DNA of 64,000 nt from Marsupella aquatica. Lineage: Eukaryota > Plantae > Marchantiophyta. The notes under the pieces are model-generated. The model made no database searches. It saw only the letters and a program-made list of their open reading frames with translations, and was not told the DNA's origin. This document shows positions 4,443-35,072 of this stretch, in pieces (the stretch's first letter is position 1; every line of letters begins with the position of its first letter). The stretch is taken from assembly GCA_973895155.1 (NCBI GenBank), contig OZ316891.1, positions 16,457,651 to 16,521,650 on the forward strand. The letters are read 5' to 3'. Position numbers and translations under genes: made by a program.

Positions 4443-5954
4443 GTGGGACTCAGGTAACCCCATAATGAAGTCCATGGAGATGGACTCCCATGGAGCTGCA
4501 ACTACTGGTAAGGGTTGCAGAAGTCTTCCTTTTGCTTGGTTCTTTTGGCACGAGTAACAACTTTGCACGTGGCAAAGAACCGATTGCTTCATGTCCGGCC
4601 AATACACATCTTGCAACATGCTGCAATACGTAGCAGCTTGTCCGCCATGCCCTCCCCAGGGCAACTTGTGGTACTTTTGCATAACCTCCAGTCTTAGAGA
4701 CTCTGGGATGTACACTTGTCTCTGCTTGTATCGCCATAACTGGACATTATGCGTAGCATCCAACCCCAATGAAACATGCCTTACCTTGCCTTGACTACCC
4801 CCATTGCTTTGCCATTCCTTGGCTAACTTGTCATCCTCATACGCCTTGGCCAGAACCTTTGGCCACCCGGATTCGAGCATCGTGATCCCATTGACACGAT
4901 GATGGTCCCTACGCAATATTGCGTCAGCTGCTATGTTTGTCTTCCAAGAAGAACGTGACGGACTTCAAAATCAAAATCCGCCAAGAACATTTGCCAGCTC
5001 ATTTCCTTGGGGTTCAGCCTCGACTTAGAATTGAAGTACCCGGCCGACAAGCTATCTATGTGTATTACCACCTTGGGACCGTTCTTAAGGTAAATTTCTC
5101 ACTTCTTCAATGCATAGATCACCACGTACATTTCCCTTTCCGGGGTGATCCAATGATTTTCCAACTTACATGACTCGAAGGCCACGGGACGTCCGTCTTG
5201 GTGTAGATAGGTGCCAATGGCGTAATCACTTGCGTCTGTCCAAATCTCAAATGGCTTCCCCATCTCAAGCAACTTTAGAACCGGTGGTGTTATCAATAGC
5301 CGCTTGAGTTCTAGTGCTAACTCGCAATCCTATATCCACACAAACACTTTGTTTTTCATTGTTAGCTCGTTTAGGGGCCTCGTGATCCTCGCATAGTCTT
5401 TCATGTATCTCCGATAGAACCCTGTAAATTCTAAGAAGGCTCTAACTTGCCTTACATTGGATGGGCGTTCCCATCCTTTGATCTCCTTAAGCTTGTCCTG
5501 ACTAGGCATAATCCCCTTCGGGGTAAAGGTGTGGCCGAGGAACTGAATCTTGTTCATCGCAAGTTTGCGCTTGCTAGGTTTAGCAAAGAGACAAGTCTTA
5601 CAAAGGCAAGAGAATACTTCCCTGAGCAACTGCTCATGTTCCTCCAACATTTTTGAGTAGATTAGGATGTTGTCAATAAAGCCTACCACTCCTTGGTCTA
5701 ACAAGTCATGAAAGATGGTATAATTCATTATCTTACCCTTGTGTGCAACCCAAACGGCATAACCAAAAATTCATAGGATCCAACCCTTGTGTGCATCATG
5801 GTCTTATACTCATCTCCCTTAGCCATGCGGGTCTGGTAATACCCAGACCGCAAGTCCACCTTTGAAAACTTCTTAGCCACGGAGAGGCAATCAAAGAGGT
5901 CATCCATATGAGGTAATGGGTACTTGTTCTTTACCATTTGCTTCTTGAGGGTGA
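4443..5954 (-). pseudogene. pol: Ty3/gypsy pol fragment: RT - RNase H - integrase N-terminus, degenerate
   Basis: KNKYPLP...[12 protein letters not shown]...[10 protein letters not shown] (RT), FIDNILIYS (degenerate YxDD), WTDASDYAIG (RNase H), HKLPWGGHGG...CYSCQ and WESISMDFIMGLP (integrase); order RT-RH-INT. Confidence 0.92.
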
Positions 5955-6015
5955 GGGGAGGTAATCCATCAGTTATCAGTCACTGATATCAGTGACCCCC
6001 CTTTTTTTTCTCTAA

Positions 6016-6650
6016 TCTGGGAGAGCTCTCCAAGATGGCGACAGTTTTTTTTGGCAATCTCAGAGAGCTCTCCGAGATCCCTACCGTTTTTTTGGCCGGA
6101 GAGCTCTCCAAGATGGCAACAATTGTTTTTGGCAATCTTGGAGAGGCTCTCTGAGATCCCTACCATTTTTATGGCAATCTTGGAGAGGCTCTCTGAGATC
6201 CCAACACACTTCTAGGAGTATGTTGGAGACATGGTAGTTTGTTTGCTCACCATGTGAGAGAGCCTCTCCGATGTACCAAGTCACTCCGTTGCCATCTCGG
6301 AGAGTCTCTCCGAGATACCAAGTCTTTTTGTTGACCATCTTGGAGAGCCTCTCCGAGATACCAAGTCTTCTCGTTGACCATCTCGGAGAGCCTCTCCGAG
6401 ATACCAAGTCTTTTTGTTGACCATCTCGGAGAGCCTCTCCGAGATACCAAGTCTTTTTGTTGACCATCTCGGAGAGCCTCTCCGAGATACCAAGTCTTTT
6501 TGTTGACCATCTCAAAGAGCCTCTCTGAGATACCAAGTCTTTTTGTTGACCATCTCGGAGAGCCTCTCCGAGATACCAAGTCACTTTGCAAACCATCTTC
6601 GACTTTCCCATTCCATTTCTAAGACCATCTCAAAGAGCCTCTCCGAGATA
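6016..6650. repeat. Palindrome array 1 (left subterminal), 43-bp unit
   Basis: ATCTCGGAGAGCCTCTCCGAGAT + ACCAAGTCTTTTTGTTGACC repeated at 43-bp spacing (6296, 6339, ...); more diverged copies at 6016-6200. Confidence 0.95.
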
Positions 6651-6772
6651 CAAATACAAAAAACTTGCAAGTGATACACATCACATTCACTTTTCATATA
6701 TATGGTAATGTGTACACAGGAACACTTCATCATTGCTACCTTCTCTAAAGCTAAACCCTATTGGCCACTACT

Positions 6773-7887
6773 TTATTCTGTTATCTGATATGTGCACAGG
6801 TCATAAATAATCTTCTTTTGCAAGTTTCCTACCTGGCTGCCATCAAAATCCATAGGAGCATCTCGACTTATGCGCTCTACATAGTTAAGGATAAATACCC
6901 CACAATTTACACTATCTTCTTGTGATGGAAGGCCTGACACTAAAGTTCTAGGCCAGTTGTATGCATCTGGTGAGGGCATGCCACTTTGACTTGCTTCATC
7001 CTCGATATACCTTGTTAGAGTATACATGAGATACTCATTTCGAGCCTCCCAAAAGTTTCCTGATTTCTCCCAAAGCGAATCTAGGAACAACACCTCTTTT
7101 CCAGTTAAATCAATCACTGCCAACACCCAATGCTCCCTATTTGCCTGGTGGATAGGGACCAATATCCTGTCATAATCAAATATGTTTTCTGTTTTGGTCC
7201 ATCGAGCAACATTGGCAAAACAGTATACGGGCGTTGAGAGCAACGTGTAGAATGCTGTGATGAAAAATGCACACTTTGGATAGCCTCTTGATCTCCCCCT
7301 AGACTGCAACAAGGCCAAGTATGCATCGATGATATCTGAATGTAGCCATTGAGCTGCTATTCTTCCTTCAGACAAGCATCTCATTGACGCCCTAGTCAAC
7401 TTGTAATCTACAAAGTTGAATAGTACTTCCTCGTCTGGGAGCTCTATGGATAGACATGTGGATACTATGTCGGAAAAGTCTTGAGAGCAGACTACTTCAG
7501 CAAATAACCGAGGTATCCGAGTATTCCCACCACGTGCTACATAGGATTGAACAACATGGCATTAGGCATCATCTTCATCTAAGCTATAGGTCACAAAAGA
7601 AGGGTGAGCTATCTTGTCACTATCACTGCTGACACTCTCACTTTCATTGTAGTCTACCTCTACTGCTCTATCATCTACAAATCTAGATTTTTGCCTCTTT
7701 GTGTACTTCTCAGCTACACCCTTGAGCCGTTTGAAGGGGCGTGAATCAACAATCCCTTCTGCGTAAGTTGGAAGGCAAAATCTTTCTGGAGAGAAAGTTT
7801 TCAATGCTTCCTCCCATGCTTCACGGACTTTGTCCTTGTCTGATGTGTGCCATTGTTCGGACTCGATGTTCCTGTAGTGAACTGCCT
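6773..7887 (-). pseudogene. Ulp1/SENP-family SUMO protease (peptidase C48) exon
   Basis: WLHSDIIDAY, RILVPIHQANREHWVLAVID...FLDSL, SQEDSVNCGVF (His-Asp-Gln-Cys residues present); in frame with ORF 7562-7804 across one TAA. Confidence 0.9.
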
Positions 7888-8404
7888 ATTGGTTAAGTAG
7901 ACAGTTTAAGGTAATACCATAATAATGTGGAACTTCACATTTTTATTGATCCTCACCATGGCACAATGTAAATTGCAAACTACCTACAACAAATGGGTTC
8001 TTGGATTCAACGTTTACTCACAATCCTGAGCATTCCCACCCTTGCCTTTTGCGGCATCCTCCTCTGATACAGACTCAAGGACCAGCTTCTTCCGCCCTTT
8101 AGGCTTCTTAGTCTCCTTGGCCTCCTCCTTCTTACTCTCCTCGCCCTCCGCCTTGGTCTGATTGCCTTGCTGCATTGAAAGGAGTTTTGACACCACTAAA
8201 GCTGCTGACTCACCAAAGTAGTCATGCGCTTCCATCCCAAATACTAGTCGCCCACAATTATTGGCAGCTTTGTAGATAGCACCAAAGTGGACATTCCAAG
8301 AAAATATGATATCGCCGAGACTGGTGATGTGCTCTATGATGCATTGCAAGGTTGCAAGCGATAAGGTTCCGGCCAATTCGTCTCTCACTGCATCATCTTC
8401 CTTT

Positions 8405-9113
8405 CCTGGGAAAATAGTTTTTATAATAAAAAGGTGAGACCGCAAAAACCCCACGGCCGGGGGGAAGCAAACAGCCCCTTAGATATATCAGCACAACTCC
8501 CACAGGGAGGCCAGCAGGCATAAGCAAAGGCCAGAATCACAATAAACATAAAAAAGGGGAGACTGAAGCTATAGGCCCAAAACGTGAGTGACCCACACAT
8601 CATGTCAACTTGTAGAGCCCTAGAGCCGATAAGCAAGGTAACCCATTCACCCTTTTCCAATAGCTATCACTCCTAGACCAGCAACGCAGCCACTGAGGTG
8701 ACTCTGCCAGTACTCCTAGCAAACCAGTGTCGTTGTTTTAAAGCGATGAGATCCCTAGCCTTAGCCAGTCTGATGCGCCGCCCACCAATGGGGAGGCACC
8801 AGCCCGCAGCTCGCAAGTGCGTCTCAGTTTCCGAGAGGACCAGCCCAAAATCAAATACTCTGATCTGCTTTTTCTCAAAAATCTGCTCATTTCGTCCCAT
8901 CCATAGAGCCCACAGTATTTGATACTGCAGGAAAAAGCAGGTAGATTGAGTGTGTGTTCTGGAGTCTGTAGCAACAAGGAGTTCCAGGCTACCCCAACCC
9001 CTGCCAAACAGTTGTCTCAAGGAGCTGGACTCTCCAATTCCCCAACAGCGCATGGCGTGGGCACAGCCAAAGAAGAGGTGGGGGATGCTTTCAATTCTCC
9101 CAGGGCAAACATG
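8405..9113 (-). mobile_element. 5'-truncated L1 LINE with 15-bp TSD
   Basis: TSD GCATCATCTTCCTTT at 8390-8404 and 9114-9128; encodes HLFFGCAHAMRCW...QILWALWMGRNEQIF (end of ORF2, zf-RVT region), resembling 51338-51802. Confidence 0.9.
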
Positions 9114-9329
9114 GCATCATCTTCCTTTGTAAAATTGGATAGAGCATTGCTCTTTGCTGGGCACAAGTCACCAGTAATTGGCTTCATATGTACCTTTGGG
9201 AGGGTCACCTCTGTACCCTTTATGGTGAATATATCTAAATGCAGATATTGAGCCTGTCACATCATGCAAAATAGATTTGCACTTGTTAGCAACACTAATT
9301 GCTAAACTTATCCGACATCGGTCCTACCT

Positions 9330-9810
9330 ATCTCAGAGAGGCTCTCCGAGATCCATGCTACCTATCTCAAAGAGGCTCTCCGAGATGGATCCTACCTATC
9401 TCAAAGAGGCTCTCCGAGATCCATGCTACCTATCTCAGAGAGGCTCTCCGAGATGGATCCTACCTATCTCAGAGAGGCTCTCCGAGATGGATCCTACCTA
9501 TCTCAAAGAGGCTCTCCGAGATCCATGCTACCTATCTCAGAGAGGCTCTCCAAGATGGATCCTACCTATCTCAAAGAGGCTCTCCAAGATGGATCCTACC
9601 TATCTCAGAGAGGCTCTCCGAGATCCATGCTACCTATCTTAGAGAGGCTCTCCGAGATTGATCCTACCTATCTTGGAGAGCCTCTCCGAGATTGATCCTA
9701 CCTATCTCGGAGAGCCTCTCCAAGATCAATGTTACCGATATGGGAGAGGGTGTCCGAGATTGTAATTGCGGACACATTTTTCAACTATCTCGGAGAGCCT
9801 CTCCGAGATG
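9330..9810. repeat. Palindrome array 2 (intronic), 34-bp unit
   Basis: Palindrome plus an 11-bp spacer alternating CCATGCTACCT / GGATCCTACCT; about 12 units inside intron ~9254-9846. Confidence 0.95.
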
Positions 9811-12227
9811 ACTTCTATTGAAATGCCAAAATTGAAGTGAACTTACAGCTTTTTTGCTTGATGCCATGTAGCAAGGTGTGTCATTCCAAATGGTGAATGA
9901 GTCAATGTGATCCAACTTCTCAGCCCGGTCAATGTGAAGGTACTCAAAGATTGAGCTTGTGTGGGCAAATGAACCACTATGCACGATGCACAGGAAACCG
10001 TCATTTGTGAGTAGAGAGTCTGCCACTGTCGTCGCCACTTCTAGGTCACTGAGCCAAAATCTATTCCACACTGGAACATTATTTTCAGCTTGCGCTATGC
10101 GATAATCTGTCCCTAACTGAACAAAGATCATATCACAACCATGGCCCTTAGGTACACCATCAACTATCCAGCCTTGTTTTCGCAAGCCAGCCAACTTCAA
10201 TTTCTTACACCAATCCCGGAATTCCCTCATGAATGGAGGGAGAGACAACTTTCCCGTGGTTGGCTGGTATTTGTCCTTCAGTCAAGAAGAACACTCTAGT
10301 AAGGTCATATGCTCTTTTGCATGGCAAAATTGCAGGGCAGATGTAATAGCATGAGAGGGCCGAGGTACTCCAAGAATTTTGCAAAGATCATCCTCCGGAA
10401 TTTCTGGGGCTTCTGTTGAAACTGGCTTCTTTGTGGGTTTGTCTATCCTCTTCTCGGCTTTCTTCTTTGGCCGACTGGTTGGCTTACCAGAGATTTGTGG
10501 TTTGCTTGGGGTCCCAATCGGGGTCCCGCTTGGGGTTGAAAGGTCAGGCTCCTCCTCCTCCTCATGGCCCTCTGCATTGTCCCCGGTGGCCATCTCATCC
10601 TCCTCTCCATTGGCCCCACTTGCCGCTTTCTCATCCTCCTCTCAATTGTCCCCACTCACCGCTTTCTCATCCTCCTCTCCATTGTCCCCGGTCTTTCTTG
10701 GCTCCATCTTCTCATCCATCGAACGACGTTTGCTTGAGGTAGACCCTGGGGTTCCAAACTTTTCTTTACTTTTTTCTGCAGAACAAAGTAAGGAGTTTAG
10801 TATACATTTTACAATGATACTATCTCGGAGAGGCTCTCAAACATAGGTCAGATGTACAATGCAAGCTAGGGTGTAAACCTTACCAGGAGTGCCTTGTTCT
10901 GAGGTGGTGTCTTCTGATTCCTTTTCTTTCTTCCCCCGAACCTTCTTCCCATCATACTCTGGCTCTCCAAGAGGCAAAATGGCCTCCAAGTCCAATGCAG
11001 CCTTTGTCGACTGCTCAAGATCTGCCAACTTTGAAGGCGCAAAAAGGTTGTCTGGTAGTTTCCCCTCCTTTAGGAGGTTGGTAGCTTCCTTCTCTTTGGC
11101 CGTAATGAACTCATTCCAATCATTGAACTCCATGAACCATGGACAATTTTGTCTCTCCCAGTCTGAAAAGACTCTTGCTGCTAGCTTCAGCCCGTCTGTT
11201 GGATACATTGATAGCGGGCCTTTCTCCGTCATCCATGCAGTCAAAGCACTTGGTAACTCTTTGAAAGTAGAGGCTCCAATGCTCTCCTAATGAAGTAAAT
11301 ATCTGACCACACACCTCTTTGCACGCTTCCTCCACACATCTTTGCTTTGCTTTGCTGGATTCCACATCTTCTTGCCCTCCTCATAGGACCGAGTCTGTAC
11401 AAATTGCTTGTACATCTTGTTGTGAAACTCAACAAACTTGTCTTTGCTTCCATTGAAGTTCTGCCACTCACCAGAATCATATGCACTCTTGGCAAACTCT
11501 GACATGATCAAACTGCCAACATGGGCAATGTAACACCACATTGCACACTAGCAATCAAGCTCTCACTGCTGAATCACCATATACATCTGGATGGTGGTGT
11601 TGCTTCTTCTCCTCCGCGGTTGAGAAATGAACACGGAGTAACTTATTTCGACACTCAGTAGGCATCACCGCACTTGCAAACAATTTAACTCAATCCAACC
11701 CCACTTGCACTTGTGGCCAATCTTTCTGTTTACTCTGCAACTGGTGCAGCTCCTCGGCAATCTCCAAAAATTCCTCTCCATTTGCTGGATTGACAATCTG
11801 AGCAAACTTCTGCATTTTTCCCTCCCAAGACCTACAGGCTTCACTCGTCATGAGTGCGGTTTCCTTTTGGAACTTATCCAAACTCCAGGCATGGCCAATT
11901 GCAGCATCGACTGCCATCTCCTTCGCAAGACGAATCCTCCCGTCTTCAATATTATTCCACGACATGATGTACACAACAGCATCCTTTGTCATGCACTTGC
12001 TATACCATGTCTTTCCATGCCCATGGCTTCTTGCTGCTAAGAATCTACCATTACCATCCGGATGAAGCAATGTCTGATACTCCTACAAAGGTGTCATCAA
12101 CAACTTCTTCACCCTGTCTGCATCGGTCAACCAAGATGTCTGCACAACGTTTGCGCTTATCCTGCGTAAAAGAAGCAACAAATGTTGGCGTCAAAGGCTA
12201 TGTACAAGCAAATTAGATCTCTGTCAG

Positions 12228-12500
12228 ATGCTCTCCGAGAAGGCATGGATATCTCGGAGAGGCTCTCCGAGAAGGCATGGATATCTCAGAGAGGCTCTCC
12301 GAGAAGGCATCGCTCTTCAAGAAGGCATGGATATCTCGGAGAGGCTCTCTGAGAAGGCATGGATATCTTGGAGAGGCTCTCCGAGAAGGCATCGCTCTTC
12401 AAGAAGGCATGGATATCTCGGAGAGCCTCTCTAAGATAGCATTTTGAGAGCCAAACATTGTATGTGTGTATGTATCTATCTCAAAGAGCCTCTCCAAGAT
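12228..12500. repeat. Palindrome array 3 (intronic), 32-bp unit
   Basis: ATCTCGGAGAGGCTCTCCGAGAAGGCATGGAT repeats (12251, 12283, ...) inside intron ~12162-12572. Confidence 0.93.
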
Positions 12501-13269
12501 AGGATTGCCTATGTGGGTGCAAAGGAACAACAAATGCAAGAACAACCAAAAACCAAGGGGGCGATCACTTACGCATTGAGGCCATGCATTGCCTGCTCAA
12601 TCTTCCTGAATCCTTGTTTTCCAGTTTGTAGAAGAGAGAATCTCACGCAAGGGTGGTAATTCTGCTCGTTAGGATACTCTTCAGCCACTTGTCTCCATGC
12701 ATTCAGGCGATGATTTCCATCAAACACCCAAAACATCTTACCCTTCAAAATGTGAAACTCCTCGTACTCATCACACTCCATCTCAAATTTTGCGTTAGCT
12801 TGTTCCCATAGAGGGTCCCAATCTGCGGAAAATTCAGACATAGAGTGGGTGGCGTTATGCGCATTGGTCTCTGATACGTGGAATTCCAAAAACTTGTCCA
12901 CATACCCATTCTTCACAAAGTCCTTCTTCATCTTGAGAATGGAACTCTGTTGGAGAGTCCGAACTGCCTCCATTGTCATCAAACGACATAGTGGAATCCG
13001 AGGTGGCTCTCTGGGCTTCCCGCTTGGTTAGCTCCAAATGAAACCAAGTACTCCCCAACAATCCCTTCGAATGCACCTTTGTTCAAACGTTCAGCAGACA
13101 CATTTTCAAAGTTCAGAACCTTTGGCTCCAGCTTCATTGTGTGAGTTTCCCGACCACTGGCGGTGCTCTCTGCTGTCTTTGATCTGATCTGCTGACCAGA
13201 CAATGAAGGAGAGGGAGTGGGTTGCTTCCTCTTCCCTATCATTTTCAAACCTCACCAACTACTGAATTG

Positions 13270-13740
13270 CATGAGCACAACTTGCACAACACTTGCACCG
13301 CCCACAGCTCAGTTGCAGCAAGCTCAATCACTGGCAATGCATGGCACAACACACAACACATTCGCACCGCTTGCACAACACTCGCACTCGCACCGCCATA
13401 GGTCACCGCACTCAATCGCACCGCTTCCAGCACTCGCACTCACAATCGCACCGCTTCCAGCACTCGTACCACCACAACTCAGTCGCAACAAGCTCAATCA
13501 CTAGCAGTGGCACAACACACAACACAATCGCACCACTTTCACAGCACTCGCACTCGCACCGCCACAGGTCACCGCACTCAATCGCACCGCTTCCACCACT
13601 CGCACTCACAATCACACCGCTTCCAGCACTCGCACCACCACAACTTAGTCGCAGCAAGCTCAATCACTGGCAGTGGCACAACACACAACACAATTGCACC
13701 GCTTCCAGCACTCGCACCACCACAACTCAGTCGCAGCAAA
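13270..13740. repeat. AC-rich compound tandem repeat (~170-bp higher-order unit) upstream of the ParB-like gene
   Basis: Recurrent CACTCGCAC, AATCGCACCGCTTCCAG and AAGCTCAATCACTGGCA blocks, about 2.5 copies. Confidence 0.85.
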
Positions 13741-13832
13741 CTCCCTATCCCATAGGGTTTTGTGGGTTTTACTGGAAAATAAAAATAAAAATAAAAATAT
13801 TGAGCCTAATCCTTGCTAAACACCTGAAGATG

Positions 13833-14600
13833 GCATCTCGGAGAGCCTCTCCAACATCCCTAAACCCTTCATACCTACGCAAGATGGTATCTTGGAGAGC
13901 CTCTCCAACATGGGTCAAGGCTACATACCTCCGCAAGATGGCATCTTGGAGAGCCTCTCCAAGATGAAACTTGGTGAGATCCGGTGCAAGATCCCGTGCA
14001 AGATCTAATCTCAGAGAGGCTCTCCAAGATGGGTCGAGGCTATATACCTCCGCAAGATGGCATCTTGGAGAGCCTCTCCAAGATGAAACTTGGTGATATC
14101 CGGTGCAAGATCTAATCTCAGAGAGCCTCTCCAAGATGGGCCGAGGCTACATACCTCCGCAAGATGGCATCTCAGAGAGCCTCTCCAAGATGAAACTTGG
14201 TGAGATCCGGTGCAAGATCTAATCTCGGAGAGCCTCTCTAACATGGGTCAAGGGTACATACCTGCGCAAGATGGCATGTCGGAGAGCCTCTCCAAGATGA
14301 AACTTGGTGAGATCCGGTGCAAGATCTAATCTTGGAGAGCCTCTCCAAGATGGGTCGAGGCTACATACCTCCGCAAGATGGCATCTCGGAGAGCCTCTCC
14401 AAGATGAAACTTGGTGAGATCCGGTGCAAGATCTAATCTCGGAGAGCCTCTCTAACATGGGTCGAGGGTTCATACCTTCGCAAGATGGCATGTCGGAGAG
14501 CCTCTCCAAGATGAAACTTGGTGAGATCCGGTGCAAGATCAATCTCAGAGAGCCTCACTAACATGGGTTGAGGCTTCCAGATGGCATCTGAGAGAGCCTA
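13833..14600. repeat. Palindrome array 4 (intergenic), 107-bp dimer unit
   Basis: Palindrome alternating with spacers GGGTCGAGGCTACATACCTCCGCAAGATGGC and GAAACTTGGTGAGATCCGGTGCAAGATCTA; period 107 (14222, 14329). Confidence 0.95.
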
Positions 14601-14659
14601 ATGGACACCCTAAACTTGCTGTCAAAGGTTCTTGGATGTTCAACGAGGGAAGAATATTT

Positions 14660-15120
14660 GTAACAATTTTTACGCTTGGTCTGGGCGATAAGGTACTCTG
14701 ACAAAACAATCTTGACATATTCAACAAAGAAAGAAGCGAGTCTAACAATTTTTACACTCTGTCTAGGCGGTAAGGTACTCTGACAAAACAATCTTGACAT
14801 TCAACAAAGAAAGAAGCGAGTGTAACAGTTTTTACGCTCGGTCTGGGCAATAAGGTACTTTGACAAAACAATCTTGACATATTCAACAAAGAAAGAAGCG
14901 AGTGTAACAGTTTTTACGCTCGGTCTGGGCGATAAGGTACTCTGACAAAACAATCTTGACATATTCAACAAAGAAAGAAGTGAGTGTAATAGTTTTTACG
15001 CTCTATCTGGGCGGTAAGGTACTCTGACAAAACAATCGTCACATATTCAGAAAGAAAGAAGCGACTCTAATAGTTTTTACGCTTTGTCTGGGCGATAAGG
15101 TACTCTGAGAAAACAAAGTC
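14660..15120. repeat. ~82-bp tandem repeat, about 6 copies, between the divergent MULE genes
   Basis: TTTTTACGCTCGGTCTGGGCGATAAGGTACTCTGACAAAACAATCTTGACATATTCAACAAAGAAAGAAGCGAG repeated. Confidence 0.92.
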
Positions 15121-15234
15121 ATAAGAATGAATAGCAGTTTTCACATACTGTTTGCTGATTAAGTTACGCTCTTGAGAAACAAAGAGGAATTGAGCAAGCC
15201 GGAAAGGCAATAACATCCCTTACATGAACGAGGT

Positions 15235-18200
15235 TGTGATGCCTAGCCAGGAATCATTGGGCTAGTTTAAGTGGAAAAGAGAAGTGTACCCTAGAAACAC
15301 CTTAGTATAGTTACAAAAATAAGGAAAATATAAACAATTAAGGGTGACTCTGGAACCCGAGCTGAGGCCGGAAGTAAGGACGCCAGGGGAGAGAACACGA
15401 TTAGGGTTAGGGCACGCTAAGTGCCGGCGGCTAGGGGTAACCAACGGGAGGGAGAACCAGAGGAGGAGAGGGGTAAGGACCGCTCGCGAGGAATAGTGGC
15501 TCATTTGCAAGCACGAACTGGGCAGGCGACTACGGGCGGCCAACTACTGTCAACTGCTTAGGCAAGCGCTTAGGGTGGGAACAGATACCGACTATCAACT
15601 CGAGAAGGGTATGAGCAACATCAATCAAGCGGCACATTTTTGGGGATGCCTGTTCGAACGGGCAACTGAGTACATTGGGACTTATGAGGACGAAGAATCG
15701 AAGAGAGCAGCTCAAGAACGACAGGAGCTCGCCCGATTGTGGGAGCTACAGAAAGCTGCCTTCTTAGGAGGAGAACTCATCAAGGCTGAATTCCTGTGGA
15801 CACCTACTGGCAACGAGCTAGACGACCTGCTATTTTGCGAAGATAGAGTCGTCGGCATCCGAGAAGCCATCAAACGCTGCAACGACATACACTGGGAGTT
15901 GAAGGGTAGCACGGAGGGGTGGACAAAGGCAACCGTGCTAGGAGAGACATCCACGGGAGCCGAGATGAAGAGGAAGGGGAACAACAATGAAGAGGCCACC
16001 CCAGCAAAAAGAACGAGGTCGACGGCACCAAAGAAGCCAGCAGAACAGCAGAGCAGGAGGCAGAGAGAAGCCGAGGAGGAGGAGGTCAACCCCATCAATG
16101 CCATTCCAACAAACGATGACACCTGGAAAGGCTGGGCGGCGACCCTACCAGAGGAAGTGCAATTACACTTTGCACGGGAGGAGGATGCATGCTTTACAGC
16201 TATGCAGACCAAGAAATACCAAGGCTTCATGGCCGGATCCGGCTTGGAAGCCTTCGTAAGATTACCACGGCTGAAGCCGGAGGTGCCGGACTCAGACTTG
16301 TTAAAATCCGTGGGATCATGGGAGTCCAAGACCAATTCCACAAGGGTGTATGGGAAGGATTTCTATCTCACTCCCCGGGTGATTGCTGAAGTGTTTGGCT
16401 TGCCGATGGGTAATAAGACCAAGGTTGATACCAGGAAGACCTTACCTGACAAGGAGTTTCGGTCGTTCCTAGGACCATCAACAAAGAATGGCTTCTTCCG
16501 GAACACCTGCACCAACCCGCACATTGGAGAGATGATCGATTTCTTGCGGGTAACCATGCACTGTAACTTGCCGAGGGCAGAGATCGGCAAGGCTCAGGTC
16601 TACCTGGAAAAAAGGCCAGACCGGGCCCAAGCCGGGATTACAACGGGTACCTCCTCAACCAACTGAAGAAGATCTTGAAGGAGGAACAGCAGGTGATCGG
16701 CGTGGGAAGCGTGTCCCGGCTTGGCTATCACATGCCGCTGTTGTGCCGGTATGCCAGAAGTCAAATCTTTGCCCCAGTACTTCCCCTATCGGCAAGAGCA
16801 CCGGAGGAGGTCCCGGAGCAGAGGCCGGCAACGGAGAAACCCAACCCGCCCGACAGTCCTACAATCGAGCAAGTGTTTAGGCCAAGGACGGAGGACTTGC
16901 CGATGCAGCAACCAGGCATGCAGAATCTGCTGAAATTGCTGGAGAAGGAAAAGAGAACGGCAACGGCAACGGCAACGGCACCAATGCAGGACACTGCTCC
17001 AGAGGTGGGCCTAAGCCGGCTTACAAGGGAAAACCCCTTTACTGGGGTCAAGGAGAGAAGGAGGCCGGAACACGAGCCGGGAGTCCGGATGTATGTCGGA
17101 GCCTCAAGTCCCGAAGCCGAGGAGAAGCAGGCCGTAGCTCCCGGCCACGACAAGGAGAACAAGAGATCAACATGGAAGCCGAAGGAGGAACCAAGACCGG
17201 TGAGAGGTGAAGTCGTGTTCACGACAAAACCAGGAGAACAGTGGGAGAAGCCGGTAGTCCAAGCCGAGGAGGAGGCGGTAGAGGACTACAGCAATGATGA
17301 CTCCGGCTACGGGTCGGATCATCATGTTCCAGGAGTAAGGACCTGTGGCCGGTTCATCCCCACGCTCCCAAGAGTAGTTCGAGGAGACCCGAGCCAGCAG
17401 AGCAGCCCCGAGTCTCCCCCACCAGATGTCGCTCCCCCGAGCTTTGACGGCATAAAACAAACGGCGCAGGAATTTCAGGAGCGAATCAGGGAGGAAGAGG
17501 AGGCAGCCCTGGCTAGGGAAAAGGATTTACCAGGAGGAGAATGGCCAGAGGACATCAGGCGGCTTGCAGAAAAACGAAGCATCCCTCCAGCCACAATAGA
17601 AAAGATCCGCAAGGCGGCTTGGGAGCACAGGCCGCGGTGGATGATGCCGATGACTTCTACTTCCTCCACCTATGCTAAAAATAGAGCCATGGAGTACGGG
17701 GAAATGTGTGGAGAGCAAGCGCTCAGCATCTTTGGGGAAGAGTTGGAGCAAGGACCCTTTTTTCAGAGGGAGATGTTGGAGAAGTGCCAATTAGAAGAAG
17801 CGGTGGCTTTGGAAAGAAGCAAGAAGGACGAGGTCATCCGTCGGCTCAGGGCAAGGGAAGCCGAAATCAAAGACCTGAGGGCGGCCAAGAAAGCCCAAGA
17901 TGAGCTACGGATTAAGCGGCATGAGCTAAATATCATGCAGGGCCAATTGGATACCGCATAGTCTGATAATCGGATTATCGAGAATAAATTGACTCGAACC
18001 CAAGAAGAGTTGGCCGATGCGATCAAGGAGCGAGAGAAGTGGAAGCGAGAGCTGAGGGATGCAAAGGAGGCCCACATAACAGCCAACAACCGGGCCAGGG
18101 CGGAGACCCAAAGAAGGGAAAGGGCATTGAAGGGGGAGCTCGAGGTTATCCGCGGAGCCCTTGAGAAGAAGGAGGCCGAGTTAGGGAAATCCTATCAAGG

Positions 18201-19978
18201 GATTATTGCGCTGCAGCAAGAGCTTGCATCCCTGACGGCCAGCTTCAAGGCCGACCTGCGTGAGAAGGACAATATGCTCGATCAGACTTATGCCAAGATG
18301 AACCAGATGGAGTCTGTCATCATTGCAGAGCTTGACAAGGAGTTAAGAGCAACCCGGGAGGAGAGAGCTACGTTTAAACAGGAATTGGAGGAAGCCCAAA
18401 AGGAGCTGGAGGAGGCGCGCAAGGACCTGGACGAAGTGCAGGAAGAGTTGGAGGAAAGCACGCGGAAGCTAGAGAACTTACAACGACGAGCCGACAACCA
18501 AACGGAGCGGCTGAAGAAACAAGCCGCAGTATTTAAGTGCTTGGCTTCATCAGGGCCAACTCAAATTGAGGCCACTAAGTTACCAGGAGTGGTACTGGCC
18601 GAAGGACAAGCCGCGCCATTTGCACTAGTGCCGGAAGTAAGTGGGAAGAGGAAGGGGCCAGCTGCCGAACCAGAAAAGAAGAAGAAGTGGAAACCTTCAG
18701 GGTCAGGGAGTAATACGGCTCCACAGGCCATGGTGACCAAGGAGGTAAACCCAGCACCGACCTCGGGCAGGGTTACGGCAGAGGATCCAACTACCCTAGA
18801 AGAAGGGGATGACAAAGCCGAGGCCAGGATACTCGGTAATGAAGCCGAGGTACCCAATCCGCCATTTGAGTGTGCAGGGGAGGCCGTAGCCGTGGCTGAG
18901 GCCGTAGCCAAGGCTGATGTTGAAGCCGATGCCGTTGCCGGGGGCGGACCCAATCAGGCCGATGGAGAGTTGACTCAGTCAAGGGCAGGTAATCTGTCAG
19001 AGAACAAACCTACGGCAATGGCTGAGGTGGAAGCGTTGGGGGCGTCCACTGAGGAACAGACACCGCTGCCATGACGATGGTGGAGGGCTGCTCCTTTCAA
19101 GGAGGGTGGACGTGGAGGGAGGAGGCGTGAGTGGGCAGGGCGGGCTCAAATCTCTAAGTTTAGGATTAGGATCAGGACCAGGAGGCAGCCCTGACACTTA
19201 GCTTAGTAGGATTGCGGTTCCACTGGTAAGAGCAACACTTGTACTCCTGCCTTGCTGTACATAGGTAGATTCAGTTAGGTAGATTAGGCTTACGCTGCAA
19301 GGAATTAGGCGGATCCACTACCAGGATAAGTACCTGGGCAGCGGGGAGCTCAGGGCCTCTTCTTTAGCAAGTTTTTAGTTGCACCAGCCGGGCTGGGATC
19401 AAGTAGTAAGAGAAGCTCTCGGTTAGTCATACAGTGACCCTTGTGTATATTCATGTTTCCTCATGCCTAAGAGCTAAATAGAGTTGGCCTCACGGCTTAG
19501 TTCGCAGAGCTTGTGTATGAGATGTACTGTTTGTATGGCAAGTGCATGGTATGACTCAGTCAGAAGGAGTCATTTTGCTATTTGTGTGTCGCATTAACTT
19601 GTGTGAAGAGTGCCCACATCAACTAATAGAGGAAGGAAAGTAAGCAAGGGAGTGAGAGTTGGATGTGTCGAGCTGAGAGAGGTCTTAGCGGCTTAACCAA
19701 GCCTATTGGGGATCATTCCGGCGGCGGAATCCAAATATACCTAACAAGATGGAGGGGAAGACAAGGGAAGGCCTAGATTAGGCTGGCTACGTATCTCATG
19801 ATCCAATGAAGGATCTGTCCAATATATGCGTGTAAAATGTTAATAGTAGTAGTAGAAGGAGGTTAGTAGCGTCCCATGGCACTAAGCCGCGGAAACGGCC
19901 TCGCCAAGCACGAAACCCGCGGGAATCGGCTTGTGAAGGGGGGTTTCTGGGGTTTAGGGAGCCATGGGACGCACCACA
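15235..19978 (+). mobile_element. Giant LTR family X, full length (~4.74 kb)
   Basis: TGTGATGCCTAG...GGACGCACCACA; ORF pieces 15575-16666, 16675-17961, 17989-19074. Confidence 0.93.
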
Positions 19979-22350
19979 GCTTGGGAACAAAGGCTGCGGT
20001 GGATGATGCCGATGACTTCTACTTCCTCCACCTATGCTAAAAATAGAGCCATGGAGTACGGGGAGATGTGTGGAGAGCAAGCGCTCAGCATCTTTGGGGA
20101 GGAGTTGGAGCAAGGACCCTTTTTTCATAGGGAGATGTTGGAGAAGCGCCAATTAGAAGAAGCGGTGGCTTTGGAAAGAAGCAAGAAGGACGAGGTCATC
20201 CGTCGGCTTAGGGCAAGGGAAGCCAAAATCAAAGACCTGAGGGCGGCCAAGAAAGCCCAAGATGAGCTACGGATTAAGCGGCATGAGCTAAATATCATGC
20301 AGGGCCAATTGGATACCGCATAGTCTGATAATCGGATTATCGAGAATAAACTGACTCGAACCCAAGGAGAGTTGGCCGATGCAATCAAGGAGCAGGAGAA
20401 GTGGAAGCGAGAGCTGAGGGATGCAGAGGAGGCCCACATAACAGCCAACAACCGGGCCATGGCGGAGACCCAGAGAAGGGAAAGGGCGTTGAAGGGGGAG
20501 CTCGAGGATATCCGCGGAGCCCTTGAGCAGAAGGAGGCTGAGTTAGGGAAATCCTATCAAGGGATTATTGCGCTGCAGCAGGAGCTTGCGTCCCTGAAGG
20601 CCAGCTTCAAGGCCGACCTACAAGAGAAGGATGACCAGCTTGACTAGACTTATGCCAAGATGAATAAAATGGAGTCTGAGGTCGTAACGGAGCTCGACAA
20701 AGAGCTAAGAGCAACCCAGGAGGAGAGGGCTACCTTCAAGAAGGAATTGGAGGAAGCCCACAGGGAGCTGGAGGAAGCCCAGAAGGAGCTGGAGGAGGCG
20801 TGCAAGGACCTGGACGAAGTGCAGGAAGAGTTGGAGGAAAGCACGCAGAAGCTGGAAAACTTACAATGGCGAGCCGACAACCAAACGGAGCGACTGAAGA
20901 AACAAGTCGCAGTATTTAAGTGCTTGGCTTCTTCCAGCCCAACTCCAATTGGGGCAACCAAGTTACCAGGAGTGGTACTGGCCGAAGGACAAGCCGCGCC
21001 ACTTGCACCAGTGCCGGAGGTAAGTGGGAAGGGGAAGGGGCCAGCTGCCGAACCAGAAAAGAAGAAGAAGCGAAAACCTTTTGGGTCAAGGAGTAATACG
21101 GCTCCACAGGCCATGGTGACCAAGGAGGTAAACCCAGCACCGACCTCAGGCAGGGTCACAGTAGAGGATCCAACTACCCTAGAAGGAGGGGAGGGCAAAC
21201 CCGAGGCCGGGATACTCGGTAATGAAGCCGAGGTACCGAAACCACCACTTGAGTGTGCAGGGGAGGCCGTAGCCGAGGCTGATGCCAAAGCCGATGCCGA
21301 TGCCGAAGCCGAGGGTGGACCCAGTCAGGCCGATGGAGAGTTGACTCAGTCTAGGGCAGGTAATCTGTCAGAGAACGAACCTACGGCAGTGGCTGAGGAG
21401 GAAGCGTTGGGGGCGTCCATTGAGGAACAGACACCGCTGCCATGATGGTGGTGGAGGGCCGCTCCTTTCAAGGAGGGCGGACGTGGAGGGAGGAGGCGTG
21501 AGTGGGCAGGGCAGGCTCAAATCTCTAAGTTTAGGATTAGGATCAGGACTAGGAGGCGGCCCTGACACTTAGCTTAGTGGGATTGTGGTTCTACTGGTAA
21601 GAACAACACTTGTACTTCTGCCTCGCTGTACATAGGTAGATTCAGTTAGGTAGATTAGGCTTACGCTGCAAGGAATTAGGTGGATCCACTACCAGGATAA
21701 GTACCTGGGCAGCGGGGAGCTCAGGGCCTCTTCTTTAGCAAGTTTTTAGTTGCACCAGCCGGGCTGGGATCAAGTAGTAAGAGAAGCTCTCGGTTAGTCA
21801 TACAGTGACCCTTGTGTATATTCATGTTTCCTCATGCCTAAGAGCTGAATAGAGTTGGCCTCACGGCTTAGTTCGCAGAGCTTGTGTATGAGATATACTG
21901 TTTGTATGGCAAGTGCATGGTATGACTCAGTCAGAAGGAGTCATTTTGCTATTTGTGTGTCGCATTAACTTGTGTGAAGAGTGCCCACATCAACTAATAG
22001 ATGAAGGAAAGTAAGCAAGGGAGTGAGAGTTGGATGTGTCGAGCTGAGAGAGGTCTTAGCGGCTTAACCAAGCCTGTTGGGGATCATTCCGGCGGCGGAA
22101 TCCAAACATACCTAACCAGAAGGAGGGGAAGACAAGGGAAGGCCTAGATTAGGCCGGCTACGTATCTCATGACCCGATGAAGGATCTGTCTAGTATATGT
22201 GTGTAAAATGTTAATAGTAGTAGTAGAAAGAAGTTAGCAGCGTCCCATGCCGCTAAGCCGCGAAAACGGCCTCGCCAAGCGCGAAACCTGCGGGAATCGG
22301 CTTGTGCAGGGGGGGTTTCTTGGGTTTAGGGAGCCATGGGACGCACCACA
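19979..22350 (+). mobile_element. 3' half of another family-X LTR, in tandem with the previous copy
   Basis: Begins mid-ORF (GCTTGGGAACAAAGG, cf. 17617) and ends GCACCACA; the composite 15235-22350 is flanked by GAGGT/GAGGC. Confidence 0.92.
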
Positions 22351-22421
22351 GAGGCATCTCTCGGTAGATGCCACTTGAACTCTCTTGGTGCTCATTTTTA
22401 GTCTTTCTTCAAGTGGTTATC

Positions 22422-25400
22422 ATGGCTGGCCGTGTGAGGATCACGTTTCCAGACAATGGAGACGTTGTTGTGCTAGTGACTGATGGTGTTGTTCGACATA
22501 CACCAGACAACAAATTAGCTCGTCGGTTTGATGTTGAGATTGGGGAGTGGGCACTCTTTGAGGCCGGCGATGTCTTACCATTGATTGAGGCAGACTCAGA
22601 GGAGAGTGGAGAGGAAAGGATATGGCATCTGAAAAGTGAAGTTTCGTACCTCCTTCAGCAGAGGGTGTACTCTGTTCCTCTTACTGAAGTTGGTTTGCAA
22701 TCTCAAACTGGAGAGAAGATTTCAGAGTGGCCGGTAGAGGTAGAGCAAGCCAAATTTCTTGAAAGTGTTGTTGTTGCAATGCTGAAAGGGAAAGGCACTT
22801 CGCGATGTGTAAAGGCTGCCCATTCCATTCTCAGAGTGCATTATCCACAACGAGTCATGACTCTGCCATAATGGTCTGATGGGGATTGCATTTTTGAGCT
22901 CCCCCCATTCACAGGTATCCACACAAAGGGTGCCTTCTTCTTGGGTATGGAGCGGAGAAATGACTGCTACTTGTGGAGCAAGCTCATCGAGACAGGGGCC
23001 CAAATTGGACCCAACCTAAACAAGGGAGGCTTCAAGTATAAGATTGGGAATGTGAGATGTCTGGGCTCTTTGCAATGTCCACATTCAGATTCTCCGGCTT
23101 TTACAAGTAAGAATGAGCGCAATTGCACAGAATGGCAGCGAGATAGGGGTGGGAGAAATGAGTTTCCATTTCTTGTTGGGCAACTAGTTCCAGCAGAGAG
23201 TGTGATTTGCGCCTTTTGTGATCGGCCTCCTAAGTGTATAGCCAAGTGTCCAACCAAAATGTTCTACATCACTCCAACCTCTCATGACCATTACATTTAC
23301 AAGCACATGACACATGTTGCTATGCATGTTGGGAGTCACTCACATCCGGCCAAATTTGTTCTCAAGAAAGATCGAAAAGCGTTCTTACATAAGTTGATGG
23401 AAGAGAAATTGAAGAAGAATCCTCATGCAATGCCGTCTGTGATCAAGAGTGACACAATTAAAGCTCTAAGGGATATTTTTGATGACAAGGTTGCTGGGAT
23501 TGTCACATTTGAGGAAGCACGGGATCTGAATGAAACATTGGCGATCCTATCAAATTGATCAGTTGTAAGATCTATGATACAGAGCATACGCAAGTATACC
23601 CATGCCTCATCCGACCTCCAAGTCATCCTTGATCTTAAAAAAAAACAGTGTTTTCATTTGTCCAGAGCACTCTATTTCCAAACCAGAAGCTAGATACAGA
23701 TGAGCGCCCACACATTTTCAAGATGACTGTAAAGAGTCTAGGGTCTGGAATCGATCTCATTCAAAGGATGTAGCCTGGTAGAGATCTACAAGACTCATGG
23801 ATGATGTTTGATGTCATGCATTGGATGACTGAGAAGCAATGGTGCACAATGTCAGCTCATGTATACGACCACCTATACAAAGGTCTTTGCACAATTTTTG
23901 TATGCGAGCTAGTTTCGGAAGATACTGCTGCACTACAAACTGCATGGAAGGCCATGAAGCAAGTGTCTAAGGCAAATGGGCTTGACAATGTTACGTTTTA
24001 TGGGTTCATTGCCGATAATGCTACAGCTAGGTGGAATGCAGTTTGAAACACATTCTGGGATGGAAGAGTTAATTCTCAAAAGGAGCGATCTGATGCATTT
24101 CACTGGGCGCAATCAGTGGAGAAGATGACAAAGAAATGCATTCTTCCTGGCAAAGCAGTTGAGCATAAGGAGCTTCTGGATTCATTGAGGGACGCTGCCA
24201 ATGTGGTTCTTGCATTTCGGACTTTTGAGAAGATGAAGGATTGGTGGAAAAATGGGAATGCAATCAAAGGAAAAACCAAGTCAATGGAGACATGGCTTTT
24301 GTGGTGGATTGTGTGGTTCTCCTAGTGGGGAAACTTTATTTGCTGGTAAGTCTATGAATTCTTAGTAATATTCCATCTTGGAGAGGCTCTCCAAGATGAT
24401 TAATCTTGGACATGTCAGAGAGCTTATTTGAGAACAACAAATTGGTCTTCTCGGAGAGCCTCTCCGAGATGGAACATATGGGTAATCTTCGAGATGGAAG
24501 ACGGGTCATCTCAGAGATCCTCTCCGAGATGGAAGAGGTGGGTCATCTTGGAGAGTCTCTCCAAGATGGAAGAGGTGGGTCATCTCGGAGAGGCTCTTCA
24601 AGATGAAAGAGGTGGGTCATCTCGGAGAGCCTCTCCAAGATGGAAGAGGTGGGTCATCTTGGAGAGCCTCTCCGAGAGGAACATATGGGTAATCTTGGAG
24701 AGCCTCTCCGAGATGAAAGAGGTGGGTCATCTCGGAGAGCCTCTCCAAGATGGAAGAGGTGGGTCATCTTGGAGAGCCTCTCCCAGATGAAACAAATGGG
24801 CGACTAGGAAGACATGTTAGAGAGCAAACTTTTGTTTTGTAAATATATGGTTCATCTTAGAGAGGCTCTCCGAGATGGAACACTGGTCATCTTGGAGAGC
24901 CTCTCTAGGATGGACCCCGTTGGACATGTTGCAGATGTACAAGATGACTCATGTACATTTTTTGGTAATACTCTTTTCTTTGATTTTTGTGTAGGACATG
25001 GACAGAACTAAGTCTGCATTGATGCTGAACCATAGCGGGGCAGAATCCATGCATGCCGCGATGCGCGGATGGTCTTCCACAACAAAGATTGGGATAGTGC
25101 AATCTTGTATAACAGATGCAACCCGTGCATCAAATCAAATTGGTGCCCTTGTGAACTACACGACCCACAAGAGGAAGGGCCGTGGCCCAAGCCTCTTTGA
25201 ACTTCGTCTCTGAGATGCCAGGATGGTTGGGAATGTTAAGAGTTTCTTCCCAAAGTTAAATACGACAATGACTCAACCGGAGATGGTTGAATATGCTTTG
25301 GGGGACCCAATTCTTGGTGACTATGAAACTCAACGAATGTCGGCGCGAGGCAAGGTTCCAGCTAATGCTATTGCAGTAGAAGACTCCCACCGCAATGATG

Positions 25401-26639
25401 TCATTCTAGTAACGCAACCTAAGAAGCGAAAGTTCAAGGGGATTTTAAGCCAAGATGCAAACTTGAAAAGTACCATTCCTGACGTGGTCGACTTGTCAAC
25501 CTCGTTAGACTCTTCTCCAGGCTCTGGTGGATCAGATGTGGTGATTTTGGAGAGCCCAGTACAGCGTGAGACAAGGTCGGCACGTGTCCCTCCACCATCA
25601 ACCCCAAGGAGGTCAACTCGAGTGCCTCCTCCGCCCCCAACAAGGGCAACACGTGTTCCACCTCCTCCAACCCCAACAAGGTCAATACCAAGGTCACCTC
25701 GTGTTTGTCCACCAAGGCGGTTTGCTGAACCTTTGCATAATGCTGGCAAATAGAGACAAGTTCAAGAGAGCAATGTGATGCCAGGAATGTTGTTTTTGTC
25801 TTGCATCAGTCGCCATGGAAGTGGGCCCGCTTGTAGAGGTGCCTTCAAAGGCACAGAACGTCCAACATGCTGTCTATACATCAAGGAGGTGGGGTTTTGT
25901 CATGCAATGTTGGGTGTGGTAGGATTGTGCTTATTGGCTGGGAGCAGTTACAAGGATCCAAACATTGCACAAAAGTTTTGGTTTTGCCCAAACAATGAGT
26001 GTTGCCAGAAATCCTCCATGGCATATGTTACTGGGCGGCTGCCCCCACTACCGGAGAAGGTCCCAGTTGCTCGATGAACCTATCTAACACAAGAGGAAGT
26101 TGATTTTCTCCATGTCAATGGATTGAATGTGGTACAGACCATCATTCCTGGTGATTCAATGGTGAGTCCTGGCAATGTAATTGTGGACTTGAATAGTTAC
26201 CCTAAGCAGATGGATCCATTGAAGCCTGATGTCAGGCTGAGCCGGCGCAATGGCCGCTTACGGCGAAGGAGATCCGTTGTGACGGCAGATGCAAAGAAAC
26301 GTATTGAGAGTGCCAAATACGTATTGAGAGTTGATGAGGTTCACTTCCATGACTCGAATTGAAAAAGAGAATGCAACTGGCTTACGAGTGGTATTTTTCA
26401 ACACTCATCGTGACCGCAATTCAGCCCATTGTCTACAGATATGTGTGTTCCCAACTTGCTCTTGTCAAGATTTCATCATGAGAGATACTGGAAGATACTT
26501 CTTTCCTTGCAAACACTTGTATTGGTGCTATAAAAACATTTGTGGACAAGATCTAGAGAGCAACCAAGAGATCCACCAACCAATCTTGACACTTAGCGAG
26601 GTTCGTAAATTGGTGTCAAATGTAGCAGGCTCAGGGTGA
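22422..26639 (+). pseudogene. MULE-type DDE transposase with N-terminal GCM-like Zn domain and C-terminal SWIM finger
   Basis: RCLGSLQC...CAFC...C...HVGSHSHP (GCM-like); MMFDVMH...FYGFIADNATARWNAV...DAFHWAQSV (MULE DDE core); PTCSCQDF...PCKHLYW (SWIM). Intron ~24346-24994; several stops and frameshifts. Confidence 0.82.
24374..24910. repeat. Palindrome array 5 (transposase intron), 37-bp unit
   Basis: Palindrome + GGAAGAGGTGGGTC (24545, 24582, ...), between GTAAGT donor ~24346 and TGTAG acceptor ~24994. Confidence 0.95.
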
Positions 26640-26737
26640 ATGCATGTCAAAGATGTTTCAGGTTTAGTGGGTATAACGATCTACTTTTGTATCCTTTCAT
26701 AATAATAAATGTTCAAGATTTCAAATGATGTTGATCC

Positions 26738-26858
26738 CATCTCGAAGACGCTCTCCGAGATTCCAACCTAGTGTGGATCCCATCTTGGAGAGGCTCTCCG
26801 CGATTCCAAGTGATGTTGATCCCATCTCGGAGGCTCTCTGAGATTCCAAGTGATGTTG
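26738..26858. repeat. Palindrome array 6 (right subterminal, truncated)
   Basis: Three diverged palindromes with spacer TCCAAGTGATGTTGATCCC. Confidence 0.85.
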
Positions 26859-32043: not shown

Positions 32044-32082
32044 GGGATAGACGGCGTTGTGGATCCTGTCGGCTCTGCCACA

Positions 32083-35060: not shown

Positions 35061-35072
35061 GGCTTAAAAAAT

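Follow-up and report, generated by a model that had tools for sequence, protein, structure and literature searches.

Does a bacterial-type methyltransferase (MTase) fold that is carried by a plant transposon still function as an enzyme? This question is raised by the minus strand of a 64,000-nucleotide stretch of the liverwort Marsupella aquatica (assembly GCA_973895155.1, contig OZ316891.1, positions 16,457,651 to 16,521,650; hereafter, the window), where the original prediction placed a beta-class N4/N6 amino-MTase fold with degenerate catalytic motifs. Our analysis indicates that the fold is very probably that of a beta-class amino-MTase, with a remote relationship and a weak sequence signal. 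It forms part of an accessory gene that joins ParB-like, MTase-like, and Ulp1 domains, lies beside a likely Mutator-type transposase, and shares its element with arrays of a 23-bp palindrome.

The interrupted MTase domain

Both strings quoted in the original prediction are present on the minus strand, namely DMIFVQLGTD at 10134-10105 and IEHITSLGDIIFSWNVHFGAIYKAANNCGRLVFGME at ∼8340-8230, and between them lie a GT-AG intron (9846-9254), an exon (9253-9114), and a fragment of a long interspersed nuclear element (LINE). The 46-codon exon, which the prediction had not named, is a piece of the MTase domain and aligns to the E-Y-I-L-F-F-R-K strand of beta MTases; in BLASTP, its 46 residues did not align with the Riccia homolog P0005. 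The LINE fragment (709 bp) splits the MTase exon and is accompanied by a 15-bp target duplication, GCATCATCTTCCTTT, at 8390 and 9114. Since 8389 is joined to 9114 in the contigs of two of four public sequencing runs (X2 and X3), a LINE-free form exists. Spliced without the LINE, 10281-8017 encodes 316 residues with no stop, and the stop at 10282-10284 is specific to this copy, position 10282 differing in all four runs. The minus-strand stretch is one domain, interrupted by an intron and a LINE, and is laid out as follows.

9847..10775, minus strand: acidic/basic linker with the first (N-terminal) half of the MTase fold, whose motif IV position is 10134-10105; 27 homologs; AlphaFold2 (AF2) model with a predicted local distance difference test (pLDDT) score of 89.6
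9114..9253, minus strand: short exon supplying the final strand of the N-terminal half, together with the target-recognition region; AG acceptor, in frame
8405..9113, minus strand: 5'-truncated LINE in the MTase exon; target duplication at 8390-8404 and 9114-9128; zf-RVT E 0.05
8022..8389, minus strand: second (C-terminal) half of the MTase fold, with the helix of motif X, a degenerate motif I at 8310-8281, and a retained motif II acid (VFGME, 8244-8230)

The assignment to the beta class rests on profile comparisons with phage enzymes and on structural models. For the former, 85 viral loci were gathered from two phage methylase genes, and a profile was built from 67 phage beta-class MTases. 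The spliced protein scored 9.0 bits against this profile (at most 6.7 in 1000 shuffles), and hhalign aligned the two over 196 collinear columns (E 2.3e-4, score 34.2, compared with at most 22.5 in 59 block shuffles). This alignment spans motifs IV, VI, VIII, the next strand, X, I, and II, with motif IV before X-I-II and the target-recognition region between them, which bears out the predicted beta-class order of catalytic motif first and motif I last. The two halves map to positions 24-109 (through the Riccia homolog P0021) and 151-216 of the phage profile. On its own, the N-terminal half gave an E of 0.0038 in hhalign (score 23.7 versus 21.5). The C-terminal half returned (i) a single PADLOC match, at E 0.0094, to positions 150-214 of a 227-position type II MTase profile, and (ii) eight tblastn matches in phages at E 6-10, three of which are annotated methylases. 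In the reverse direction, a profile of the N-terminal-half family placed beta MTases at all 10 top ranks among 1464 phage open reading frames (ORFs; 124 MTases), and MTases at 19 of the top 20 among the 245 ORFs of at least 200 residues (110 MTases), where the ranked rows are related rather than independent and individual E-values are 0.05 or higher. The best-scoring prokaryotic relatives of this profile carry DLPYG, not SPPY.

The structural models point the same way. The top BFVD match of the window half-domain model is an N4C MTase (E 0.046, probability 0.80), and in VIA this model reached a Z of at most 5.0 (3.9 with M.MboIIA). The Riccia homolog P0005, which includes the next strand, gave an AF2 model (pLDDT 76.5) with eight BFVD matches at E ≤ 0.001; the four named ones are all N4C/N6A MTases (best E 7.1e-5, probability 1.00). 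In VIA, the P0005 model aligned with M.PvuII (Z 5.5, root-mean-square deviation 4.6, 121 residues), M.BceJIV (Z 6.0, 4.3, 116 residues), and M.MboIIA (Z 6.2, 4.3, 115 residues). Of the four longest alignments in the 50 rows, these three enzymes supply three, each beginning at the N-terminus of the enzyme. Weak support also comes from a complex prediction with three exon pieces, in which packing of the halves scored 0.42 (best control, 0.03), with a contact agreement of at least 27% and a partner pLDDT of at least 64. The mark for this score was passed by 51 of 78 solved pairs and 2 of 108 mismatched pairs; at ≤ 0.60, however, it was passed by only 5 of the 78 solved pairs and by every one of the 4 passing mismatches, and the two halves of a split domain may pass the test through likeness to solved folds.

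Several observations weigh against the fold assignment. The phage MTase set was seeded from matches of the C-terminal half, which favors that half in the profile and hhalign tests; the N-terminal-half test is for this reason the better one. The hhalign probability of the MTase alignment is 44.5%. PF01555, the family named in the original prediction, does not detect the domain: no Pfam family matched either half, scanned separately, at E ≤ 1, and PF01555 was not matched by any of 28 homolog hits either. Profile searches of Protein Data Bank (PDB) sequences found no MTase, and a PDB Foldseek search with the window half-domain returned nothing at E ≤ 0.001. Moreover, the SAM-MTase fold was found on the N-terminal two thirds, in the P0005 model, a chain outside which the motif I and motif II strands lie. 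Apart from these points, word-index protein searches yielded nothing for the MTase N-terminal half, the ParB exon, or the family alignment (for which the search covered 980-2795 aa), and the Atlas leads for the N-terminal half were from the methyltransferase clan only, all below 0.9. Separately, PDB-sequence matches that included MAGE and a glyoxalase were set aside as chance hits.

Motif loss across the family

Searching 1.84 billion representatives with phmmer gave 28 hits; P0027 was dropped as a repeat protein, which left 27. These 27 homologs share a noncanonical motif IV at 23-53% identity; an organism name is attached to eight of them (seven Riccia sorocarpa and one Calypogeia fissa, none algal). 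In the canonical enzyme, the motif IV aromatic stacks on the flipped base. Across our 28 rows, this motif reads (D/H/N)-L-I-x-x-x-(L/I/M)-(P/G)-T-G, and its fourth position is T in 21, A in 3, M in 2, N in 1, and C in 1, so that the aromatic is absent from all 28. Nine residue types occur at the first position, and 9 of the 28 rows have D or S there; five Riccia proteins carry DIPT, from which DIPY is one change away. Close copies in the four runs keep QLGT, the only common change being synonymous, with a further change in one contig of depth 4. Since all 28 family members and the close copies are without the aromatic, the loss of motif IV is old and shared and does not reflect decay of the window copy. 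By pattern, (D/S)xP(Y/F/W) is found in 111 of 124 phage beta-MTase ORFs; the broader catalytic form, (D/S/N)-(P/L/I)-P-(Y/F/W), was found in none of our 28 rows or close copies.

Motif I is altered as well: DPFMGSG aligns to SWNVHFG, with a His at the first glycine, and FxGxG is absent, a loss seen in this one decayed copy, as no homolog covers motif I, and thereby a weak point of the pseudo-enzyme reading. The motif II Glu is kept (VFGME). The degenerate motifs of the original prediction are borne out on both counts, and its pseudo-enzyme idea held, with neither DPPY nor SPPY seen in the 27 homologs or in the close copies from the four runs. The invariant residues P70, W72/N73, and G95 lie after motif IV, and CcrM loops at the matching positions are described as recognizing DNA (PMC10406627). 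Judged by its motifs, the domain is probably inactive as a methyltransferase, i.e., a family-wide pseudo-enzyme. The reader role put forward in the original prediction is one that we likewise infer from motifs, and the domain may act in this way.

Other accounts of the domain differ on its origin or its activity. A DN4MT1-like N4-methylcytosine (4mC) writer, once active and now decayed, with its motif lost by pseudogene drift, would suit the heavily disabled state of the window copy and the description of DN4MT1 as a liverwort beta-class enzyme. However, the noncanonical motif recurs in the 27 homologs and the close copies, no TSPPY protein occurs among the 28 hits, and the closest prokaryotic matches are of the DLPYG type, so that this account is largely refuted and scarcely credible. 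It is also very improbable that the domain is a small alpha/beta nucleic-acid-binding fold of the IF3-C/Alba/Smr type whose likeness to MTase motifs arose by chance. Apart from the missing Pfam support, this view draws on the top VIA rows, which are such small folds in both models (Smr, Alba, SirA/TusA, and SepF; Z up to 8.1) and which weigh against an MTase origin, no beta MTase exceeding 6.2; yet the Smr/Alba-type matches span only 60-90 residues, whereas both halves of the domain independently point to beta MTases in the right order. A distinctly unlikely account, though a less remote one, keeps the domain as an enzyme, either an atypical MTase or another base-flipping catalyst (using the LPT/LGT, PxWN, and HSG residues), that would mark the palindromes, as proposed for algal ParB-MTase proteins. 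The noncanonical polar residues H101, W72, and N73 are conserved in the family, the retained motif II Glu, the D or S at the first motif IV position, and the DIPT proteins could be taken in its favor, and algal relatives are predicted to be active. The family-wide absence of the aromatic, the variable first position, the NVHFG of the window copy, and the prevalence of (D/S)xP(Y/F/W) in phage enzymes argue against it.

The accessory gene, its transposon, and the palindromes

Canonical GT-AG junctions, all in frame, join a ParB-like exon, a middle region, the MTase fold, and an Ulp1 domain into a single gene, roughly 1,495 codons long, the link between the C-terminal half of the MTase and the Ulp1 exon being the junction at 8022/7881. 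The window copy of this gene carries seven stops, two frameshifts, and one LINE, and is dead; several of its lesions are absent from other copies in the four runs. In addition to the MTase exons, the gene comprises the following parts.

13030..13242, minus strand: likely 5' coding part; frameshift at ∼13029
12573..13027, minus strand: ParB/Srx-like domain; FDGNHRLNA; phrog_1033 (ParB-like) E 0.088
10884..12161, minus strand: middle exon of no known family; GT-AG in frame; three stops and a frameshift near 11543, one stop at ∼11288
6773..7881, minus strand: last exon, Ulp1/C48 protease domain; PF02902 E 2.4e-25; stop at 7562-7564

In all four runs, other copies have one extra base at 13029. The Ulp1 domain retains the His-Asp-Cys and Gln motifs (REHWVL, FLDSL, and QEDSVNCG), and the middle exon matches the Calypogeia protein P0002 (E 2e-51) and two Riccia proteins (E 3e-6 and 1e-4). 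The ParB-like call is weak, given the phrog_1033 E-value and no Pfam ParB match, which counts against our reading of this exon. Its FDGNHRLNA is presumably a GxxR-type motif, and its Atlas matches (0.91-0.92) include one cluster with DndB in 13% of members, a weak lead. No ParB-like neighbor was found in the phage MTase loci.

The gene lies in a DNA transposon, together with the features below.

5950..26858, no strand assigned: DNA transposon copy, ∼13.1 kb without two nested insertions; left end approximate; all 58 palindromes inside
5979..5996, no strand assigned: perfect palindrome of 18 bp close to the left end, occurring once in the window
15235..22351, plus strand: nested retroelement-type insertion between the two genes; TG...CA ends, flanks GAGGT/GAGGC
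22422..26620, plus strand: decayed gene for a transposase, likely of Mutator type, with a Cys/His region at the N terminus, an acidic core, and a SWIM finger at the C terminus
6135..6649, no strand assigned: palindromes repeated with a 43-bp period, downstream of the accessory gene
9330..9809, no strand assigned: palindromes repeated with a 34-bp period, within the intron that interrupts the MTase domain
12251..12500, no strand assigned: palindromes repeated with a 32/50-bp period, within the intron that follows the ParB exon
13835..14512, no strand assigned: palindromes repeated with a 53/54-bp period, between the two divergent genes
24375..24911, no strand assigned: palindromes repeated with a 37-bp period, within the transposase intron

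On the left, a Ty3-type reverse transcriptase (RT) fragment breaks off at 5949 (a loose end in run X4); on the right, another repeat starts at 26859. No terminal inverted repeat, target duplication, or right end was found within the window. With 15235-22351 removed, the accessory gene stands ∼2 kb from the transposase gene and is divergent from it. The transposase is likely of Mutator type: its SWIM finger matches PF04434 (E 5.9e-4, 19.8 bits versus a cut-off of 19.6), a Pfam scan of its broken pieces gave no transposase or MULE-domain match, and its core presumably follows a D..D..DxxH pattern. The placement in a plant transposon, as first predicted, agrees with this divergent, SWIM-bearing transposase beside the accessory gene and with the confinement of the palindromes to the element. 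Sequences in the four runs show that the element is multi-copy. The homologs are known as proteins, and the transposon and palindrome setting was seen for the window copy, which limits how far it can be extended to the family; a metagenome locus scan with a 7-row alignment and a viral-contig scan with the transposase found no plant locus.

The 23-bp palindrome, ATCTCGGAGAG(C/G)CTCTCCGAGAT, has 56 matches at ≤ 2 mismatches and none in 100 shuffles; at ≤ 4 mismatches there are 58 palindromes, every one of them inside the element and in non-coding sequence, with none in an exon. The five arrays differ in period and have unrelated spacers, which argues that the same core was amplified several times. 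Changes within the palindromes affect 70 of 232 CpG positions (transitions), compared with 9 of 116 at CHG and 20 of 928 elsewhere, and this decay is the host 5-methylcytosine (5mC) pattern. No palindrome match occurred in viral contigs; matches in two metagenome contigs were rejected as chance matches to bacterial or archaeal coding sequence, with no tblastn similarity. As a separate observation, the unspliced gene calls P0001 and P0026 (53% and 23% identity) run, after the same exon end, into LGEALR, which is a translation of the palindrome and hints, at the protein level, that the window element has its intronic motif in common with these two homologs.

On balance, we lean towards a reading in which the accessory protein would bind the palindromes of its own element, the pseudo-MTase would be inactive, and the product is predicted to prevent silencing. 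In this scheme, a dimer would load at the palindrome through the ParB part; the pseudo-MTase would contribute DNA contact or dimerization via the conserved loop after motif IV (PxWN), with no methyl transfer; and the tethered Ulp1 domain would strip SUMO from local chromatin or from silencing proteins. A point against this scheme is that the palindromes could instead be transposase sites. A rival reading, which we consider unlikely, keeps the pseudo-MTase fold but takes the palindromes as structural repeats or as binding sites for the transposase, with the accessory protein acting in transposition or inheritance (e.g., by clamping or pairing copies) rather than in anti-silencing. Arrays do lie near both ends and in the transposase intron, and the AtMu1 transposase itself is reported to activate cognate copies (10.64898/2026.08.24.746577); however, most arrays are internal and intronic, like VANC target motifs, and in red algae, transposons of unrelated superfamilies have inverted-repeat arrays alongside their ParB accessory genes. 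Beyond the preferred anti-silencing reading, a tentative and doubtful extension would have bryophyte transposons run a prokaryote-derived, ParB/parS-like system of self-recognition, in which a CTP-dependent clamp sits on the palindromes, the dead amino-MTase is a base-flipping reader of host 5mC in CG-containing palindromes, and the fused SUMO protease strips silencing complexes, giving anti-silencing independent of VANC.

The remainder of the window holds further elements. Copies of the TG...CA-ended element, 82-99% identical, lie at 15235-22351, 27409-32043, 39770-44445, 1-4123, and 35097-36739; the element has a long coiled-coil ORF and no RT was seen in it, and it likely represents a non-autonomous long terminal repeat (LTR) retroelement family. 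Ty3/gypsy fragments on the minus strand (4437-5979 and 36900-39400) carry an integrase zinc finger, an RT, and a gag knuckle, the RT ending at ∼5949 at the transposon start, and gag/protease-like ORFs at 32039-35063 (minus strand) mark another LTR retroelement. A near-complete LINE at 46409-51802 (plus strand) contains ORF1, endonuclease, and RT ORFs with few breaks, and its 3' ORF resembles, by eye, the LINE fragment at 8405-9113. Two tandem repeats without the palindrome lie between the divergent genes, at 13300-13720 and 14630-15116 (GCACTC/CACAA-rich; 82-bp unit). The minus-strand exons at 55000-60683 are those of what we take to be a host gene for a protein resembling PX-domain and Cys-rich (Rubicon/PLEKHM-type) proteins.

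Comparison with known systems

Few transposons are known to bind and alter their own chromatin (VANDAL/VANC), and those with algal ParB-MTase accessory genes are, to date, predicted cases. The family described here extends the ParB-MTase accessory class to land plants and shows that loss of the catalytic motif need not entail loss of the methylase fold. Because the 23-bp palindrome offers a candidate target, and the genera concerned include a liverwort grown in the laboratory, binding and anti-silencing are directly testable. No land-plant element, liverworts included, with a ParB/pseudo-MTase/Ulp1 combination was found in the literature that we covered, the scope of which excluded Repbase, the supplements of the Bostrychia preprint and of Iyer 2016, and the text of Iyer 2011, any of which could list the family.

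Compared with prokaryotic beta-class MTases (M.MboIIA, 1g60; M.PvuII, 1boo; M.BceJIV, 8urk; and the phage DLPYG type), the window family shares the fold and the motif order IV-VI-VIII, target recognition, X-I-II, but is without (D/S/N)PP(Y/F), FxGxG, and HPTQKP, shows ∼12-16% identity, and has introns and a fusion to ParB and Ulp1. A eukaryotic amino-MTase fold of the beta class is also found in Marchantia MpDN4MT1a/b, likewise from a liverwort, and in bdelloid N4CMT, which are described as active host genes with (T)SPPY; compared by motif only, they differ from the window family, which is probably inactive, in their activity and in (T)SPPY, which none of our 28 hits carries, and neither enzyme is itself among these hits. 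The relevance to DN4MT1 and N4CMT suggested in the original prediction found no support, given the DLPYG-type relatives and the closer precedent of the algal ParB and MTase accessory genes. Our findings indicate that liverworts carry bacterial amino-MTase folds in a second, mobile form besides DN4MT1. Another transposon-borne amino-MTase, the DIRS1 retrotransposon domain, was judged inactive in all copies (PMC4738411); it differs in being a group-2, PCIF1-derived fold within a retroelement polyprotein.

For VANC and KIU of VANDAL elements, which are Arabidopsis Mutator-like elements (MULEs) without terminal inverted repeats, anti-silencing has been shown, with motif arrays in introns and intergenic DNA and an Ulp1 domain in KIU (PMC5735166, PMC13317346). 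The window element resembles them in its accessory gene, its likely Mutator-type transposase, its short motif in non-coding tandem arrays, and its Ulp1 domain. As far as these descriptions go, VANC motifs are 8-9 bp and non-palindromic, no ParB or MTase fold is described for VANC or KIU, and anti-silencing is shown there and predicted here.

The closest precedents are algal, and they too are compared by description. In the Ectocarpus transposon Sola1-1_Ec32, an accessory gene opposite the transposase encodes a protein with ParB-like and N4/N6 MTase domains, which has been proposed to bind to, and modify, the element that carries it, and similar proteins in green and red algae are cited there, with Iyer et al. 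2011 as the green-algal source (PMC12477816). The likeness lies in a DNA transposon with an accessory gene on the strand opposite the transposase and in an N4/N6 MTase part joined, in one protein, to a ParB-like part, the latter weakly called in the window element; Sola1-1_Ec32 differs in its brown algal host, Sola transposase, length (1104 residues), and predicted active MTase, and Ulp1 is not mentioned in its description. Red algal Plavaka, Mutator, and Zisupton elements are described as carrying PAG2 (PF01555 and SET), PAG3 (ParB and a 2-oxoglutarate (2OG) oxygenase), and inverted-repeat arrays (10.1101/2025.02.11.637652); they share with the window element a PF01555-type methylase fold and a putative ParB domain on DNA transposons and tandem inverted-repeat arrays beside the ParB gene, whereas they have two genes, a Pfam-detectable MTase, and SET and 2OG oxygenase effectors, where the window element has one gene, a degenerate MTase, and Ulp1, in a land plant. 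Carriage on a DNA transposon beside the transposase and inverted-repeat arrays are features that the window element has in common with the algal ParB-MTase class. In summary, ParB and amino-MTase accessory genes of algal transposons (Ectocarpus Sola1 and red algal Plavaka) are already in print, and what is new relative to the literature that we found is the land-plant family, the motif loss, and the Ulp1 fusion.

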